Of a DNA stretch of 32,000 nucleotides, positions 52 to 22,728 are shown in pieces. Under the pieces are notes generated by a model. That model had not been told where the DNA came from. It worked only from the letters and a program-made list of their open reading frames with translations, and ran no database searches. Origin of the DNA: Halorhodospira halophila SL1 (GTDB lineage: Bacteria; Pseudomonadota; Gammaproteobacteria; Nitrococcales; Halorhodospiraceae); contig NC_008789.1 in the NCBI RefSeq assembly GCF_000015585.1, forward strand, positions 570,001 through 602,000, read 5' to 3'. The number at the start of each line of letters is the position of its first letter. Within the stretch, counting starts at the first letter, position 1. A program made the position numbers and the translations under genes.

Positions 52-71
52 GGCGGCAACCGTTTGCCGCT
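52..71. promoter_or_regulatory. 20-bp inverted repeat GGCGGCA-ACCGTT-TGCCGCt, with two more TTGCCGC copies at 64-70 and 85-91 and TGCCGCC at 106-112, in the intergenic DNA downstream of fleQ
   Basis: Read directly. It has the same architecture as the sites at 4001-4020 and 22700-22719. It lies between the fleQ stop (113) and whatever gene lies off the left edge of the window. Confidence 0.4.
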
Positions 72-1583: not shown

Positions 1584-1614
1584 AAAATCGTCACACTCGG
1601 CGGCAAGGAATTGC

Positions 1615-1962
1615 CTAGTCGGAATAACGCGAGTAGGCGTCGCGGGCCTCGCGCTGGTGGTGTTCATCGCGGGACGCGGCGCCAAGGCGATCCCGCTCGG
1701 CCTCCATCCAGGCTCGGACGGCCCGATCGCACTCCAGGGATTCGGCGAGGGCCTGACGAGCCAGATCGGCGCCGGGGTGGTTCGGGTCCTCGGGCAGCTG
1801 CCGGGCCTGCTTCTCGCGCAGTCCGTTGCGCTCCATGACCCCGTCCCAGTCGCCGGCTTCGGCGCAGCGGCGCATCTGCCGGGACAGCTCGCGGAGGCGC
1901 CGAGCGGTCACGGCCACCGCCGCCCGCTCCTCGCCGCCTCCGGAGCCCTCGCCGCCGGCCAC
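1615..1962 (-). CDS. fliT: Putative FliT-like flagellar export chaperone (called by position)
   Basis: This is a 115-aa ORF that looks helical and charged. It begins 12 nt after the fliS stop with a GTG preceded by AGGAGG at 7-nt spacing. That is the position fliT occupies after fliD-fliS. I recognise no strong sequence motif. Confidence 0.45.
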   Translation of the reverse strand: MAGGEGSGGGEERAAVAVTARRLRELSRQMRRCAEAGDWDGVMERNGLREKQARQLPEDPNHPGADLARQALAESLECDRAVRAWMEAERDRLGAASRDEHHQREARDAYSRYSD

Positions 1963-4000: not shown

Positions 4001-4020
4001 GGCGGCACACCCGTTCCGCC
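4001..4020. promoter_or_regulatory. 20-bp inverted repeat GGCGGCA-CACCCG-TTCCGCC between the flaG stop and the fliD start
   Basis: Read directly. It matches the flgB-upstream site at 22700-22719 at 17 of 20 positions. It lies 5 nt after the flaG stop and 52 nt before the fliD ATG. Confidence 0.4.
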
Positions 4021-4514: not shown

Positions 4515-5993
4515 TTACTGCTGCAACAGCTGTGCCACTTGCTGCGGGATCTCGTTGGCTTGACCCAGCACCGAGGTGCCCGCCTGCTGCAGGATCTGCG
4601 TCCTGGTCATCTCGGCCGTCTCCTCGGCGAAGTCGGCATCCAGGATCCGCGAGCGGGATGCGCTCAGGTTCTCCGAGGAGATGTTCAGATTGTTGATCGT
4701 GGCATCGAACCGGCTCTGGATCGCACCCAGATCAGCCCGGGTGTTGTTGATCTGCTGCAGGGCGAAGTCCACCGCCACGATGGTATCCGACGCAGTCTCC
4801 CGGGTGCGCACATCCACCGGATCCACGCCACCCACCGTGTACGCCTCAGCCTGAAGATCCTCATAGTCGCCGCCGGGCTGCCAGTTCTTGAGCCCGATCG
4901 CCCCGAGGTCGGCGTCGTCGTCCCCCTCCAGCGGATCGACCCGGAGCTCACCACCGATCTCCGTGGACAGGGTGATGCCCCGCTCGACAATCAGCCCGGT
5001 GCTCTCCTCGTCGGTGCGATCCAGGCCCTGTCCGACCGTGGTGCCACCGACGGAGAGCGCTCCCTCGGCATCGTCCGAGATGTACTCCAGCTCGAAGTCG
5101 CTGTTGGAGACGAAGGACCAGCCGTTCTCGCCGTTCTCCAGACGCACCCCGGTCTCCGAGGCCTGGTCGTTGACCCGAGCGGCAAAGTCGCTCATGTCCT
5201 CCATGTCGCCATCGAGCTCAATGGCGTGGTCGTTGATCCGCAGCTGGGCACGCTCCCCTTCCGCGAGACCGTCGAACTCCACCGCCTGGGTCTCGGCACG
5301 GTCGGCGCGCATGGCGGAGACCCCGGTCTCGGCCTGACGCTCGTTGATCTCGCTCGCCACGTCGTTAAGCTCGCGGGCGTCGCCGAGATCGATTTCCTGG
5401 CCGTTGACCTGCAGGCCGCTCGGGAGCTGCACTCCCTCGCCGCCGGCGGTCTGGTGCACGGCACGACCCTCGGCCACATTGGCCCCGAGGTTCTCGGCAC
5501 GCACGTCAACGCCCCCGGCATTGATCGTCTGCCCGCGGTTCGGCCCCACCTGGAAGACCAGCTCGCGCAGGGTGCCGTTGAGCACGTTCTGCTGGTTGAA
5601 CTGGGTGCTCTCGGCGATCCGGCCGATCTCCTGCACGGCAGCCTGCACCTCGCGGTCCAGAGCGGCACGGTCCGACGGCGAGTTGGTGTCGTTGGCCGAC
5701 TGCACCGCCAGCTCGCGGACCCGCTGGAGCAGATTGCTCATCTCTTCCATGGCGCCTTCCGCCGTCTGGGCAAACGAGATGCCGTCATTCGCGTTGCGGG
5801 CGGCCTGATCCATGCCGTTGATCTGGCCGGTGAAGCGCTCACTGATCGCCAGACCGGCGGCATCGTCCCGGGCGCTGTTGATACGCAGCCCCGAGGAGAG
5901 CCGCTCCAGGGCCACCTCCTGGTCGCCCCGGGAAGAATTCAAGTGCCGTTGCGCGTTCAGCGATGCAACGTTGGTGTTGATCACCTGTGCCAT
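4515..5993 (-). CDS. fliC: Flagellin (copy 1, 492 aa)
   Basis: The N-terminus is the canonical MAQVINTNVASLNAQRHL...RLSSGLRINSARDDAAGLAISERF. The C-terminus is LGAIQSRFDATINNLNISSENLSASRSRILDADFAEETAEMTRTQILQQAGTSVLGQAN. The track ORF begins 5 codons upstream (MRRRV); I take the ATG at 5993, which follows GAGGAG. Confidence 0.95.
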   Translation of the reverse strand: MAQVINTNVASLNAQRHLNSSRGDQEVALERLSSGLRINSARDDAAGLAISERFTGQINGMDQAARNANDGISFAQTAEGAMEEMSNLLQRVRELAVQSANDTNSPSDRAALDREVQAAVQEIGRIAESTQFNQQNVLNGTLRELVFQVGPNRGQTINAGGVDVRAENLGANVAEGRAVHQTAGGEGVQLPSGLQVNGQEIDLGDARELNDVASEINERQAETGVSAMRADRAETQAVEFDGLAEGERAQLRINDHAIELDGDMEDMSDFAARVNDQASETGVRLENGENGWSFVSNSDFELEYISDDAEGALSVGGTTVGQGLDRTDEESTGLIVERGITLSTEIGGELRVDPLEGDDDADLGAIGLKNWQPGGDYEDLQAEAYTVGGVDPVDVRTRETASDTIVAVDFALQQINNTRADLGAIQSRFDATINNLNISSENLSASRSRILDADFAEETAEMTRTQILQQAGTSVLGQANEIPQQVAQLLQQ

Positions 5994-7725: not shown

Positions 7726-7815
7726 TGCCTTTGCTCCTTATACTCCGCTGTTCGGAAGGCCCGGGCGGCCGGTTGTTGCCGCCTGTCGGTACCCATTCTT
7801 TCGCCTTCACTGAGC

Positions 7816-7842
7816 GTATCGGCGCTAGGCGGCAAGGCTTTA
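7816..7842 (-). promoter_or_regulatory. Sigma-28 (FliA) promoter of flagellin 2: TAAAGCCT-N11-GCCGATAC
   Basis: The minus strand reads TAAAGCCT (7842-7835), the 11-nt spacer TGCCGCCTAGC, then GCCGATAC (7823-7816). The spacer itself contains one copy of the TGCCGCC repeat. Confidence 0.8.
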
Positions 7843-8124
7843 CCCCTGGGCGGCAAAAATTTTCCCAAGCGGCAACCGCAGCGGCAAGACAGCGGCAACA
7901 CTCGGCCATCGGCGTGCAACCCGTTGGCGGCTGTAGGGTTGCGAACGGCGGCCGGTTGCCGGCGGAGGCATGGCCACGGTCACCGAGGGAGCCGGACGGA
8001 TCCCGGGAGTTCGACAGGCGGCAACAACGGGGCGCGTTGGGCGGGCAAAAAAATGCCGGGAAGGCAACCCTTCCCGGCAATCAAGCGCCGATCAATCGGC
8101 TGGAGGGAGCCGCCGAGGCGGCAA
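7828..8124. repeat. Array of same-orientation RGCGGCAA octamers upstream of fliC2
   Basis: Perfect plus-strand copies start at 7828, 7849, 7868, 7880, 7891, 8017 and 8117. The spacings among the first five are 21, 19, 12 and 11 nt. There is also a one-base-insertion variant (GGCGGGCAA, 8040-8048). All lie in the 440-nt gap between the fliC2 start and the TonB-dependent receptor stop. Confidence 0.7.
8047..8078 (-). terminator. Rho-independent terminator of the TonB-dependent receptor gene
   Basis: The minus strand reads GCCGGGAAGG-GTTG-CCTTCCCGGC, a 10-bp perfect stem with a 4-nt loop, followed immediately by ATTTTTTT. It begins 88 nt after the receptor stop codon. Confidence 0.85.
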
Positions 8125-8165
8125 GCATGAGCACCCCTGAGTAGCGGGTGACCCGTGACGTGAGA

Positions 8166-10460
8166 TCAGAAGTCGACGCGCATGCCGGCCCAGTAGGTCC
8201 GCGGCGCGCCGGGACGCGCCCCCGCCGGACGGTGGTGCGCGACATAGGTTTCGTCGGTGAGGTTCTCGATACTGCCGAGCAACCGCACGTTATCTTTCAA
8301 CTGATAGTGGGCGGAGAGGTCGAACAGCCAGCGGGCGTCCATCTTCAGATCACTGTAATCGCGATCGGCCAGGGCACGCGTCTCCGAGACGTAATTGGCA
8401 TTCAGGTTGACGCGCCAGTCGGCCTGGCCGACACCGGCACTCAGGTTAAGTTGGTGCTCGGGGATCTCCGGCAGACGGTCGCCTTCGCGGGCGTTGGCCA
8501 GCTGGTTGGGGCCGTCGTCGATATCCTGCCGGAACTCGCTGTCGGTCCAGGTGTACCCGATACGAACCGGTAGCTGAACGTCGAGGCCCTGACTTTCCCC
8601 GAGGTCGTGAAGCCACAGCGCCTCGAGGCCCCAGATGTGGACCTCACCGGCAGAGACGAGATCGTCTTCAGTCTCGCAGGCACCGCCCACATTGGTGCAC
8701 TCGTAGTTGATGTTGGAGTAGTCGTTGAAGAAGCCGATCACCTCGGCCTGCGTGTACTGGTCGTTGAAACGGAAACCAGCCTCGTAGTTAACGCTGCGCT
8801 CCTCGTCGGCATCCGGGTTGGCGCCGGACGGGGCGAAACCGCGGTGCACTCCGCCAAGCACGCTCCACTGATCATCGATGGCGTAGGTGGCGCCGATACC
8901 GGGGACCCAGACCCGATAGGTGTTGGAGTAGGAGCCGTCCGCATCGAGATTGGCGCGCCCCAGGTCAGCCCACTGCTTGCGCTCCATGTCGATGTGCTCG
9001 TAACGCACGCCGGGGACCAGGGTCCACGAACCGCGCTCCATGGTGTTCTGCACGTGGAAGGCGTAAGCCTCGGCGGAGGTAACCCGGTTGGTGGTCTCAC
9101 CCGGGTTCTCCTGCTCGTCGAGCACCATGTAGCCATCGTCGGTCATCTCGAACGAGTCCTGCCACTGCTCCCGGTCCTCTTCGTCCTCGTGGTAGCGGAA
9201 GCCCACCTCCATGTCGTGGTCCCAGCCGAAGGCCTCGAAGAGATGACCCACCTGCACCTGGATGCCCTGGGCGTAGTATTCGCGGTTGTTGGCGCGGACA
9301 TTGCCGCGGGCATCGTCATCAATGCTCAGATCCCCGTCATAGGCAGTATCGAAACCGCCGAGGATCCACGCCAGCTCGTCCTCATGATCACCCGGGTCGC
9401 GGAGGATGTCGGAGATGCCCGTAAAATCACCGGTACCGTCACCATCCACCTCATGCAGCTTGTACCAGTTGCGCACGGTGTCGGTGCGGTAGACGGTGGT
9501 GGTGACGTCGGTGTCCACCGTGGGCTGGATGTAGTGGCGGACCTGATAGAGGTCGTTCTCGGTGTTGATCTCGTCGAGCTGTGAGCCGGCGTAGCGCCGG
9601 TGCGGGTTGTCGTCGAAGTCCCCGGGAAGCAGGCCGAGGTAGGTGTCGTAGATAGTGCGCCGGTCGCGGGCGTACTTGAACTCGAGTTCCTGATAGACCT
9701 CGGCAGTAGGATCGCTGGCCCATAGGCCCTTAGCGACGAAGTTGTTGCGATCGAAGCCCGTGTTCGGCACCGGGTTGTTCGGCTTGTTGGATTGATCCCC
9801 GGAGAGCGGGTGATCGAGCTCCTTGAAGCCGTCGCTCTGCTCCGTGTAACTCTCCAGCAACCACCCGAACTGCCCCTCACGCCCGCCGATGTGGGCGTGG
9901 GTTCGCCGCCCATTGTCCGACCCCAGACGCCCTTCGACCTTGCCGGAGGTCTCCTGCGGGATCGGGGTGGAGGTCATGTTCAGGGCGCCGCCCACGGTGT
10001 AGGGGCCGTGCTTGATCGCACTCGAGCCCTTGCGCACCTCCACGTTGTCCATGCGCCCCATGGGCGGGAAGTAGTAGGCCGCCGGGGCGGCGTAGGGCGC
10101 CGGCGAAGCCGTCAGCACCCCGTCCTCCATAACCGTGATGCGGCCGTTTCGCTCCGGGTTCACGCCGCGCATGCTGATATGCGGGAACTGGCCGTAGCCC
10201 TCCTCCTCGGCAACATTGACGCCAGGGATCTGGCGCAGGATGCGGTGGGGGTCGCTGTATCCCTGCCGATCGATGTCTTCGCGGCTGAGCACCTGGGCCG
10301 ATCCGGCGGTATCCTGCACCCGGTCCGGGCCGCCGGTGATCATGATCCGATCGAGCAGTCGTGAGGACCCGTCGTCGGCATCGGCCTGGGCGGCGCCCAG
10401 GGTCCCTCCGGCCATGACTGCAGCAGCAGCAACCCCCCAAGGTTTCACGGTCTGGTTCAT
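8166..10460 (-). CDS. TonB-dependent outer-membrane receptor (siderophore or ferric-citrate-like class)
   Basis: The signal peptide is MNQTVKPWGVAAAAVMAGGTLGAAQA|DADD. The plug region reads LLDRIMITGG...AQVLSREDIDRQG...RILRQIPGVNV...ISMRGV...VMEDGV...VEVRKGSSAIKHGPYTVGGALNM. A long beta-barrel follows, ending in the terminal motif YWAGMRVDF. I take the ATG at 10460, which follows a GGGGGGG SD, rather than the GTG at 10487. Confidence 0.9.
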   Translation of the reverse strand: MNQTVKPWGVAAAAVMAGGTLGAAQADADDGSSRLLDRIMITGGPDRVQDTAGSAQVLSREDIDRQGYSDPHRILRQIPGVNVAEEEGYGQFPHISMRGVNPERNGRITVMEDGVLTASPAPYAAPAAYYFPPMGRMDNVEVRKGSSAIKHGPYTVGGALNMTSTPIPQETSGKVEGRLGSDNGRRTHAHIGGREGQFGWLLESYTEQSDGFKELDHPLSGDQSNKPNNPVPNTGFDRNNFVAKGLWASDPTAEVYQELEFKYARDRRTIYDTYLGLLPGDFDDNPHRRYAGSQLDEINTENDLYQVRHYIQPTVDTDVTTTVYRTDTVRNWYKLHEVDGDGTGDFTGISDILRDPGDHEDELAWILGGFDTAYDGDLSIDDDARGNVRANNREYYAQGIQVQVGHLFEAFGWDHDMEVGFRYHEDEEDREQWQDSFEMTDDGYMVLDEQENPGETTNRVTSAEAYAFHVQNTMERGSWTLVPGVRYEHIDMERKQWADLGRANLDADGSYSNTYRVWVPGIGATYAIDDQWSVLGGVHRGFAPSGANPDADEERSVNYEAGFRFNDQYTQAEVIGFFNDYSNINYECTNVGGACETEDDLVSAGEVHIWGLEALWLHDLGESQGLDVQLPVRIGYTWTDSEFRQDIDDGPNQLANAREGDRLPEIPEHQLNLSAGVGQADWRVNLNANYVSETRALADRDYSDLKMDARWLFDLSAHYQLKDNVRLLGSIENLTDETYVAHHRPAGARPGAPRTYWAGMRVDF

Positions 10461-10505
10461 GCCCCCCCCTATGCGTGGCGCTGTCACTGTGATGTGCTTT
10501 TGCGC

Positions 10506-10534
10506 ATTCTAGTGAGAACGATTCGCGTTTCCAA
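10506..10534 (-). promoter_or_regulatory. Sigma-70-like promoter of the receptor gene, TTGGAA-N17-TAGAAT, overlapped by a weak Fur-box-like sequence
   Basis: On the minus strand the -35 TTGGAA is at 10534-10529, the spacer is 17 nt, and the -10 TAGAAT is at 10511-10506. The spacer and -10 region (GCGAATCGTTCTCACTAGA) match the 19-bp Fur consensus GATAATGATAATCATTATC at only about 11 of 19 positions. Confidence 0.5.
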
Positions 10535-10706
10535 TACACAAGAGGGCCTCAGGCGGGCTTTCCCCATCGCTATTCTCGATAACCAGGGCGCCCAGGATTG
10601 AGCCAGCGCAAATCAATGGCGGGAACGGAGGCGGTGGGGTCGTTGAGGGCGGTGTACCCGGACGCCGTGGGAGACGCCCGGGAGCGGGTTGGGTCGGTGT
10701 GCTGGT

Positions 10707-11438
10707 TTACCAGGCGTAGCCGACGCCGAGGTTCATGGCAGCTTCGGTAAACTCGACTTCATGGGCACCAGAGAAGAGGTCCTCATCCCCGTACTGGTAG
10801 AGGTTGCCCTCGACACGCATCATCACCGGCAGCTGGGTGGAGCGGTACTCGAGCCCCACCCCGACACCGATGCCAACGAACGTGGTGTCATCCGACGCCT
10901 GATCGCCGCCACTCTCGGCCTGGACTTCCAGGTTCCGCACCTGATAGCTGAGCCTGCCGTAGAGCATGCTGGTGCCCTCCTCGAGGACCCCGCCAAGCCG
11001 GACCGAAAGGCCGTACCCGTCGCTCACCTGCGCCGTCAGGCCTTCCGCAGCCTCGAGTGCGTCGTCGGCCATGGCATGGCCCAGGGCGTAGTTGATCTCG
11101 GCACCGTAATAGAGCGACTGGGATTGCAGGCCGGCGCCGACAAACAGCTCGCCCCGGGCACCCACCGCATCGGTGCTGAAGCTCAGGGTGGCGTCACCCT
11201 CGTCAAAAGAGACGTCGTCGACGTCAAACCCGGAGGCGCCTACTTCCATGGCCACCGAGGGCAGGGTCGCTGCAGCATGGATGCCGAAGTAGGGCCCCTC
11301 GAACGGCAGGGTGCGGTCGAAGAATCCGGTGGTGTTCTGCTGGCCGAACTGCGCGCTGGCCAGGGACGGCGCAACGATCCCTGCAACCGCGGCCAGCGTG
11401 ATGGCCCCTCTCCTTACACCGATACCCGGTCGCCGCAT
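10707..11438 (-). CDS. Small outer-membrane beta-barrel protein (OmpA-like / OMP_b-brl porin family), 243 aa
   Basis: The signal peptide is MRRPGIGVRRGAITLAAVAGIVAPSLASA|QF. The body has the alternating amphipathic beta-strand pattern (FVGIGVGVGLEY, VMMRVEGNLYQY) and ends in an aromatic residue (NLGVGYAW). The ATG at 11438 is preceded by GAGAGG. The track ORF extends to 11819 but overlaps the end of flgL, and the extra residues are Pro/Arg/Ser junk. Confidence 0.75.
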   Translation of the reverse strand: MRRPGIGVRRGAITLAAVAGIVAPSLASAQFGQQNTTGFFDRTLPFEGPYFGIHAAATLPSVAMEVGASGFDVDDVSFDEGDATLSFSTDAVGARGELFVGAGLQSQSLYYGAEINYALGHAMADDALEAAEGLTAQVSDGYGLSVRLGGVLEEGTSMLYGRLSYQVRNLEVQAESGGDQASDDTTFVGIGVGVGLEYRSTQLPVMMRVEGNLYQYGDEDLFSGAHEVEFTEAAMNLGVGYAW

Positions 11439-18578: not shown

Positions 18579-18631
18579 GGCGTCACCTCATTGTTGTTCG
18601 GTTATCGCGGTGCCGGACGGAGCGTGCCGCC

Positions 18632-22186: not shown

Positions 22187-22594
22187 TTACTCCCCTCGGA
22201 TCGCGCCGGTGAGCTTCTGGATCCGGCCGTTGAGAAAGTCCACGGCGGCCTGGTAGTTCACCGCGTTCTCGGCAAACTTGGCCTGCTCGACGTGCATCTC
22301 GACGGTGTTGCCGTCGAGGGAGGCGGCGTGGGGCTCCCGGTATAAAGATTTCGGATCACCCGCCGCCATGGAGGATGAAGGCGGCGGCTGAACGTGCTGC
22401 GGGCTCGTCGCCTGAAGCGGTTGGGGCTGGGGCTCGCTGGCCTGGCGCATGGCCTCGCGAAAGTCCATGTCCCGCGCCTTGTAGCCGGGCGTGTCCGCAT
22501 TGGCGATGTTGGAGGCGAGCAGCTCGTTGCGCTCGCCGCGCAGTCGCATGGCCTGCTCGGGTACCGAGAAGGCCTGATCGAAGCCGATCCGCAT
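22187..22594 (-). CDS. flgB: Flagellar proximal rod protein FlgB
   Basis: The N-terminus contains ELLASNIANADTPGYKARDMDF and the C-terminus contains GNTVEMHVEQAKFAENAVNYQAAVDFLNGRIQKL. It is the first gene of the flgBCDE... block. Confidence 0.9.
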   Translation of the reverse strand: MRIGFDQAFSVPEQAMRLRGERNELLASNIANADTPGYKARDMDFREAMRQASEPQPQPLQATSPQHVQPPPSSSMAAGDPKSLYREPHAASLDGNTVEMHVEQAKFAENAVNYQAAVDFLNGRIQKLTGAIRGE

Positions 22595-22633: not shown

Positions 22634-22649
22634 TGCAGTTCGCGTGCCA
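22634..22649 (-). promoter_or_regulatory. Sigma-54 promoter of the flgB operon: TGGCAC-GCGAA-CTGCA
   Basis: The minus strand reads TGGCACGCGAACTGCA, with the canonical GG-N10-GC spacing. The consensus is TGGCAC-N5-TTGCA. It lies about 40 nt upstream of the flgB ATG. Confidence 0.75.
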
Positions 22650-22679
22650 GACGCACGGGGGTTACAGATCAACGACTAA

Positions 22680-22728
22680 GGCGGAACACGGCGGCAATAG
22701 GCGGCACACCTTTGCCGCCCGGCGGCAG
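22680..22728. promoter_or_regulatory. Phased GGCGGNAN repeats and the inverted repeat GGCGGCA-CACCTT-TGCCGCC upstream of the flgB sigma-54 promoter; candidate enhancer (UAS)
   Basis: On the plus strand the copies are GGCGGAAC at 22680, GGCGGCAA at 22690, GGCGGCAC at 22700 and GGCGGCAG at 22721, with inverted TGCCGCC at 22713-22719. The first three are exactly 10 nt apart. They lie 30-80 nt upstream of the -24 element, inside the 144-nt cheR-flgB gap. Confidence 0.5.

Follow-up and report, generated by a model that had tools for sequence, protein, structure and literature searches.

A short inverted repeat, CGGCA-N6-TGCCG (N6 being six nucleotides of any kind), was found upstream of flagellar operons in a 32,000-nt stretch of Halorhodospira halophila SL1 DNA (NC_008789.1, positions 570,001–602,000; hereafter the window). 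The window has a GC (guanine plus cytosine) content of 68% and carries a polar-flagellum gene cluster. By analogy with known systems, the repeat is probably the enhancer, or upstream activating sequence (UAS), of a sigma-54 activator of the FlrC/FleR type that controls flagellar rod and hook genes. The initial annotation had listed four intergenic sites of the form GGCGGCA-N6-TGCCGCC at 52–71, 1599–1618, 4001–4020 and 22700–22719 (sites 1 to 4). Each was placed on the 3′ side of a minus-strand stop codon (fleQ, fliT, flaG and cheR, respectively), and both the strings and this gene context were found in the sequence as described. The four sites are not equivalent. Sites 1 and 4 are conserved at orthologous positions in all the Halorhodospira relatives compared, and sites 2 and 3 are degenerate and poorly conserved.

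The conserved unit is shorter than the 7-bp arm first proposed. The outer two base pairs of the arms vary without keeping their complementarity, and what is kept is CGGCA-N6-TGCCG. The alignment comprised 15 copies, nine from the flgB side (seven genomes, namely six of Halorhodospira and Alkalilimnicola ehrlichii) and six from the spacer between fleQ and a second activator gene (five Halorhodospira genomes). The half-site GGCA/TGCC was present in 15 of 15 copies, with an invariant core and variable spacer and flanks. The best form of the core was CGGCAA-N4-TTGCCG, to which site 1 matched at 12 of 12 positions, sites 4 and 2 at 11 and site 3 at 9. The core was conserved while FlgB identity fell from 96% to 61% and GC content ranged from 55 to 72%. 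Tandem copies 21–23 bp apart, about two helical turns, were seen in loci L085, L087 and L092.

The motif is far more frequent in the window than expected. GGCGGCA-N6-TGCCGCC with at most one mismatch matched four times against an expectation of 0.08, and none of 100 shuffles reached four. These matches start at 52, 4001 and 22700, and the fourth, at 7764–7783, had been missed in the initial annotation; all four are intergenic. The core CGGCA-N6-TGCCG matched twice (54–69 and 22702–22717; 0.11 expected). The spacing was fixed. Across nine Halorhodospira loci, GGCA-Nk-TGCC was counted 3, 4, 3, 2, 26, 6, 6, 9 and 5 times for k = 2 to 10, and CGGCA-Nk-TGCCG 0, 0, 0, 0, 12, 1, 2, 2 and 0 times. All 12 CGGCA-N6-TGCCG matches fell within two spacers, the one upstream of flgB and the one between fleQ and the second activator gene. 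The hexamer CGGCAA occurred at 6.3 per kb in intergenic DNA versus 0.9 per kb in coding DNA, and only in flagellar spacers.

On the flgB side, the palindrome keeps its distance from the promoter. In the window, L084, L093 and L085 (H. halochloris), exactly 61 bp separate its centre from the −24 GG of the sigma-54 promoter of flgB. The distance from the cheR stop codon to the palindrome ranges from 17 to 153 nt; in H. halochloris it is 153 nt, and the promoter is still 61 bp away. Because the 61 bp are constant and the stop-codon distance is variable, the element moves with the promoter and not with the end of the upstream gene. We infer that site 4 is the enhancer of the flgB operon. The sense-strand copies read GGCGGCAaaggtgTGCCGCC in the window, GGCGGCAagcgctTGCCGCC in L084 and AGCGGCAagcgttTGCCGCC in L093. 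The H. halochloris copy is GACGGCAaaaattTGCCGCC, with a second copy 23 bp off, and GCA_007121755 has two copies 22 bp apart. The core is also conserved in L087, L100 and L099, and H. neutriphila and A. ehrlichii MLHE-1 retain GGCA-N6-TGCC upstream of flgB. Between the palindrome and the promoter, the conserved block ttagtcgttgatc has two mismatches to WATCAANNNNTTR and may be an integration host factor (IHF) site. A separate observation concerns A. ehrlichii MLHE-1 (L099 5790–5960), in which a near-perfect palindrome of about 170 bp lies between the GGCA-N6-TGCC site and the flgB sigma-54 promoter.

Logan contig L081, from the same organism, served as the leftward extension of the window. It showed that the gene beyond the left edge (L081 5839–7269) is not fleS; it encodes a second sigma-54 activator of 476 amino acids and is directly followed by fliE, fliF, fliG and further genes. 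CGGCA-N6-TGCCG is kept between fleQ and this gene in the window, L088 (the closest relative, FleQ 92% identical), L090, L092 and L101, with unrelated spacers. L092 has two copies there, 21 bp apart. The centre of the palindrome is 111–142 bp upstream of the −24 GG of the activator-operon promoter TGGCATGGCCCTTGCA, and that of site 1 itself is 111 bp upstream. Site 1 would act as the UAS of the operon that begins with the second activator gene, fliE and fliF. A FleQ-type box lies 27 bp promoter-proximal of site 1. It was detected in the window, L088 and L090; L092 and L101 retain TTGACTGCC, and the left half is weaker. The block GaCAgaacttTGACtgcc, with invariant TTGACTGCC, is found at this place (28–41; L081 5671–5692), in the interval from site 1 to the activator promoter, and fits GTCA-N6-TGAC. 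In Aquisalimonas lutea (L010 11560–11720), REP-like (repetitive extragenic palindromic) repeats (gtcgcggctgaagccgctcctaca) fill the spacer between fleQ and the activator gene, at the position of the Halorhodospira palindrome.

The association with flagellar genes was also seen in other bacteria. Joint Genome Institute (JGI) metagenome contigs were scanned for the exact palindrome GCGGCAANNNNTTGCCGC, and at least 120 loci were matched. Among the 120 matches listed, at least 17 carry flagellar structural genes; a rough random expectation, taken from the flagellar-cluster share of a genome and not from a computed control, is one or two of 120. Among the same matches, the palindrome is upstream of flgB in at least seven, upstream of flgF in at least three and just upstream of flgK in at least two (12/120). 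Canonical sigma-54 promoters follow 51–126 bp downstream of the palindrome centre in at least eight loci, seven of flgB and the flgF locus L190. Additional CGGCAA half-sites frequently occur close to the matches listed, and the flagellar loci among them have GC contents of 48–68%. At least two matches are coding coincidences inside flgD (L143 2616 and L181 4790), where the sequence encodes SGNVLPPG, and such matches should be filtered in regulon scans.

The initial annotation had suggested a dimeric operator for a flagellar regulator, with FleQ and a partner of the FleR/FlrC type as candidates. This suggestion is retained for sites 1 and 4, with the FlrC-type partner likelier than FleQ; sites 1599–1618 and 4001–4020 are weak members. 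By analogy, the protein most likely to bind is the activator of the FlrC/FleR/FlbD type whose gene directly follows fleQ, just beyond the left window edge. This protein has a Sigma54_activat domain and a Fis-type helix-turn-helix (HTH) domain, HTH_8. The best solved-structure match of its AAA+ domain is V. cholerae FlrC (297 bits vs 226 for FleQ), and its best NCBIfam match is FlbD, with 414 bits, below the curated cut-off of 750. No fleS/flrB kinase gene is adjacent, and the receiver-domain match is faint. When the receiver domain was compared by BLASTP with the E. coli NtrC receiver, the C-terminal half alone was aligned. The conserved receiver lysine aligns with a glutamate in this activator. 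Aquisalimonas has the same layout without a kinase gene; in other gammaproteobacteria, about 1.3 kb (fleS) lies between fleQ and fleR.

An FlrC-type protein is considered likelier than FleQ because of the CGGCAA motif, the association with flgB, flgF and flgK, the Pseudomonas-type helix of FleQ and the presence of a separate FleQ-type box. In a preprint, CGGCAA is given as the proposed FlrC binding motif and is conserved in the Pseudomonas promoters PflgB and PflgF (bioRxiv 10.1101/2021.08.29.457346). The flgB, flgF and flgK operons are assigned to FlrC/FleR in Vibrio and Pseudomonas (bioRxiv 10.1101/2021.08.29.457346; PMC3439928). The box GTCA-N6-TGAC has been reported for Pseudomonas FleQ (PMC6120874), and for a Desulfovibrio FleQ/FlrA homologue and the V. 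cholerae FlrA region (PMC4641369). The motif had initially been described as unlike the FleQ box. This is correct for the bases and not for the geometry, which is the same (4-bp half-sites, N6).

The likely regulatory order is FleQ, then the activator, then flgB. FleQ would be produced from a sigma-70 promoter and, bound to its own GTCA-N6-TGAC-type box at 28–41, would start the sigma-54 promoter of the operon containing the FlrC-like gene, fliE and fliF. Dimers of the FlrC-like protein may then bind the palindrome through the Fis-type HTH, at site 1 and in the half-site cluster around site 4. Binding at site 1 would give positive feedback on the activator's own operon. The dimers would form an ATPase ring, loop the DNA, possibly with IHF, and open the sigma-54 complex at flgB. 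Through its palindromes, the activator would thus reinforce its own operon and switch on the genes from flgB to flgL.

Several points weigh against an enhancer of an FlrC-type activator. The binder is assigned by analogy, and CGGCAA as the FlrC motif is taken from a secondary citation. The spacing, N6, is that of the FleQ box and not the N5 of FlbD and DVU1063, and on this ground FleQ is a possible binder. The palindrome is lacking at other sigma-54 promoters of this DNA (those of flgA and fliK, and that of flaG if it is real), and sites 2 and 3 do not behave as conserved sites. Specificity was judged on only about 2 kb of non-flagellar intergenic DNA of the genus. In four of the five genomes, the palindromes downstream of fleQ are longer than the core, and these extensions differ in sequence and are offset by 1–2 nt. 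The hairpin formed by two mirror-image copies in L092 (11400–11440) has a 19-bp stem and begins at the stop codon of fleQ (−39 kcal/mol, z = −7.7). The palindrome may thus also serve as an RNA element or terminator at the 3′ end of fleQ.

We consider it unlikely that this lineage uses the palindrome as its FleQ box, with FleQ binding GGCA-N6-TGCC at both promoters and activating them directly. The geometry matches the FleQ/FlrA box GTCA-N6-TGAC, only position 2 of each half-site differs, and one V. cholerae FlrA site reads GTCA-N6-TGGC (PMC4641369). The activator operon also needs a starter other than its own product, and in P. putida FleQ drives PflgB and PflgF directly (bioRxiv 10.1101/2021.08.29.457346). 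However, the recognition helix of FleQ is identical to that of Pseudomonas, which argues for the Pseudomonas half-site, and such a box is conserved separately at 28–41. Upstream of flgB there is a palindrome but no FleQ-type box. The preprint attributes CGGCAA to FlrC, and the metagenome matches listed precede flgB, flgF and flgK, the FlrC/FleR class, with none before fliE or flhA. The loci with FleQ only, L008 and L041, have no N6 copy.

A REP-like hairpin marking 3′ ends had been offered as the other explanation of the motif. In this case the palindromes would either be REP-like elements or form RNA or cruciform hairpins by which the 3′ ends of the transcripts of fleQ and cheR are marked or stabilised, in neither case acting as operators, and we regard this as very unlikely. 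Each site does follow a stop codon, the stem extensions downstream of fleQ fit such a role, and the L092 and L090 sequences fold much more stably than their shuffled versions (z = −7.7 and −4.7). The folding z-scores of the window sites are nevertheless ordinary (−0.5 to −2.35). Terminator prediction gave no terminator-like call at any palindrome site, and none has a U-tract; the same prediction called the true terminator nearby at 8054–8079, which looks quite different. In 7 of 15 copies the two pairs flanking the 5-bp core do not form, and the overall covariation is below the shuffled mean. No stem stabilised by compensatory change was found, only the five invariant base pairs being kept. 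A hairpin needs neither an invariant core sequence nor a loop length fixed at 6, and the H. halochloris element is 153 nt from the cheR stop codon yet 61 bp from the promoter. No copies were found in about 2 kb of non-flagellar intergenic DNA (L084, L085, L087, L093 and the right part of the window), a small sample that makes this a weak point. Least probable of all, with hardly any chance of being right, is that the sites arose by chance in a 68% GC genome with many GGCGGC (69 times in the window) and GCCGCC (82 times) words, or are degenerate sigma-54 promoters, whose −24 box the GGCA(C) of the motif resembles. The shuffle expectations of 0.08 and 0.11, the conservation across genomes and the enrichment at one spacing only speak against chance, which is refuted for sites 1 and 4 and possible for sites 2 and 3. 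A sigma-54 promoter needs GG-N10-GC spacing. The motif itself was tried as such a promoter (TGGCAC-N5-TTGC) and rejected: its spacing is GG-N9-GC, and the real sigma-54 promoters are separate and lie downstream.

As weak copies, sites 2 and 3 may or may not take part in regulation. Site 2 sits at a sigma-70 promoter, its centre some 60 bp upstream of the sigma-70 start of fleQ, and not within looping distance of a sigma-54 promoter. It has three mismatches to the 7-bp-arm pattern, a level at which coding matches also occur. Only a half-site is present in L088, and the site is absent from L090, L092 and L101. Site 3 is degenerate in L088 (GCCGGAAcgcatcCGCCGCC) and absent from the same three loci. 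The only point in its favour is Aquisalimonas lutea, whose flaG|fliD spacer contains a perfect CGGCAacacgtTGCCG. The perfect sigma-54 consensus TGGCACAGCTGTTGC near the end of fliC2 is kept in L088 and L090 and lost in L092. It may be the promoter of flaG–fliD or a by-product of the conserved flagellin C-terminus.

Table 1. Sites, promoters and genes in the window and at its left edge (positions in the window unless a contig is named).
Feature	Position	Strand	Sequence or pattern	Remarks
Activator-operon sigma-54 promoter	L081 5761–5776		TGGCATGGCCCTTGCA	Just off the left window edge
FleQ-type box	28–41	minus	GACAGAACTTTGAC	One mismatch to GTCA-N6-TGAC (GaCA-N6-TGAC), then invariant TGCC
Site 1	52–71		GGCGGCAACCGTTTGCCGCt	Palindrome; perfect CGGCAA-N4-TTGCCG core at 54–69
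Extra half-site	85–90	minus	CGGCAA	Between the fleQ stop codon and site 1
fleQ	113–1513	minus		Master sigma-54 activator; HTH recognition helix RRTTLVEK identical to P. aeruginosa FleQ
fleQ sigma-70-type promoter	1555–1583	minus	TTGACG-17-TAAACT	Conserved in four genomes
Site 2	1599–1618		GGCGGCAAGGAATTGCCtag	Overlaps the fliT stop codon; weak, lineage-specific
Site 3	4001–4020		GGCGGCACACCCGTTCCGCC	Between flaG and fliD; 9/12 vs CGGCAA-N4-TTGCCG; doubtful member
Perfect sigma-54 consensus	4523–4537	minus	TGGCACAGCTGTTGC	Last codons of fliC2, 84 nt upstream of flaG
fliC1 leader palindrome	7764–7783	minus	GGCGGC-N8-GCCGCC	Inner T of the right half-site consistently replaced
fliC1 sigma-28 promoter	7817–7842	minus	TAAAG-N15-GCCGATA	
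Five half-sites	7828–7900	plus	CGGCAA	All in the same orientation; overlap the sigma-28 promoter of fliC1 and extend upstream of it
flgB	22187–22594	minus		
flgB sigma-54 promoter	22635–22650	minus	TGGCACGCGAACTGCA	Conserved in 7/7 genomes
Conserved block	22655–22672	minus	ttagtcgttgatc	Between the candidate UAS and the promoter; read by eye
Half-site cluster	22680–22727		GGCGGAAcac GGCGGCAata GGCGGCAcaccttTGCCGCC c GGCGGCA	Plus-strand reading; neighbouring starts 10 bp apart
Site 4	22700–22719		GGCGGCACACCTTTGCCGCC	Perfect palindrome; upstream of flgB
Other minus-strand genes		minus		fliT, fliS, fliD, flaG, two flagellin genes, TonB-dependent receptor, flgL to flgB, cheR, cheV
Plus-strand genes		plus		flgA, flgM, flgN, then rplS/trmD and other housekeeping genes

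Half-sites are most concentrated upstream of fliC1, where 10 CGGCAA/TTGCCG occur in 440 bp (7726–8165), an array missed in the initial annotation. Most of these half-sites share one orientation and are spaced by about 12 or 21 bp. The sigma-28 promoter contains one of them in its spacer; besides the five at 7828–7900, copies start at 8019 and 8119. The array is partly conserved in L088 and L092. Sigma-28 promoters were read from the sequence at both flagellin genes and flgM. A sigma-54 promoter for fliC1 (TGGGAAAATTTTTGC, 7853–7867) was considered and rejected, the spacer being one base shorter in the closest relative. In the fliC1 leader palindrome at 7764–7783, the stem is kept and the loop is variable in five Halorhodospira genomes, and it is probably a separate RNA feature, a 5′ mRNA stem-loop rather than an enhancer. 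The stop codons of fleQ and flgF (100–125 and 18579–18631) are directly followed by GGCGGCAC, which on the minus strand reads TGAGGCGGCAC; this is a half-site only.

The window proteins FlgB and FleQ have 96% and 92% identity to Halorhodospira halophila proteins. Orthologous regions were compared in other Halorhodospira genomes, Alkalilimnicola ehrlichii and Aquisalimonas lutea. Between flgL and fliC1 (window 8166–11400), the flagellar cluster is interrupted by genes for a TonB-dependent receptor and an outer-membrane protein, and this insertion is absent from L090 and L101. The terminator at 8054–8079 is the textbook rho-independent terminator of the TonB receptor gene. The distant FleQ loci L001–L080 were set aside as a footprinting set, being too divergent (the closest, Aquisalimonas, has 61% identity) and without conservation of the exact motif; the sole motif match in L001 falls within the fliK coding region. 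Alkalilimnicola was also discarded as a natural experiment (fliE directly follows fleQ in L102), since L099 and L102 are clearly different organisms (67% vs 58% GC).

The kind of element described here is already known, and its half-site is published. New are its occurrence in Halorhodospira, the strict N6 dyad, the copy before the activator's own operon and the apparent absence of a partner kinase. As a wider reading, we speculate that Halorhodospira and its relatives have an orphan FlbD-like activator that lost its kinase and feeds back on itself through its own enhancer. The fliC1 array and a site next to the fleQ promoter would repress or tune genes without sigma-54 promoters, and the palindromes would double as 3′ hairpins of fleQ and cheR. 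This combination is tentative and, taken as a whole, unlikely. The general picture of the sigma-54 flagellar hierarchy is unchanged. The results give a concrete and testable wiring of flagellar control for a haloalkaliphilic phototroph that had been unstudied in that respect, and they flag a lineage that has an FlrC-type activator without a partner kinase. One base per half-site separates FleQ boxes from FlrC-type enhancers. CGGCAA-N4-TTGCCG can serve to mark class III flagellar promoters in many uncultured bacteria.

The closest known counterparts are the class III sites of FlrC in Vibrio cholerae and FleR in Pseudomonas. Their proposed motif, CGGCAA, matches the present half-site exactly. 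The targets agree as well (flgB here, flgF and flgK in other bacteria), and so does the placement of the sites, which lie within looping distance of sigma-54 promoters, on the upstream and in some cases the downstream side. Among solved structures, the AAA+ domain of FlrC is the best match of the cognate activator, which carries a Fis-type HTH. Unlike in these systems, it has no adjacent FleS/FlrB kinase gene and a faint receiver, and a palindrome copy lies upstream of its own operon. The sites here are full palindromes with a fixed N6, and the comparison with FlrC is by its half-site motif, as given in a citing paper.

Upstream activating sequences of the NtrC type at glnAp2 are tandem dyads 60–140 bp upstream of a −24/−12 promoter, sometimes with an intervening IHF site. 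The layout is similar here, and the sequence and regulon differ. The Caulobacter FlbD ftr elements are 19-bp dyads, CCCGGCA-N5-TGCCGGG, as cited in PMC3333781, and the Desulfovibrio DVU1063 sites read GGCA-N5-TGCC (PMC4641369 supplement). Both share with the present element a GGCA/TGCC dyad for a flagellar sigma-54 activator with an atypical receiver, and FlbD is the best NCBIfam match of the activator here. Unlike both, the spacing is N6 and not N5 (26 copies vs 2), so that the elements lack the ftr spacing. The FlbD family score of 414 is well under the cut-off of 750, and the HTH sequence of DVU1063 differs from that of the activator here. The FleQ/FlrA box (GTCaNTAAAtTGAC in P. aeruginosa) has in common with the palindrome its 4-bp half-sites, N6 and a flagellar sigma-54 setting. 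It differs at position 2 of each half-site, which is G here and not T, and a better FleQ-type box is found separately at 28–41.

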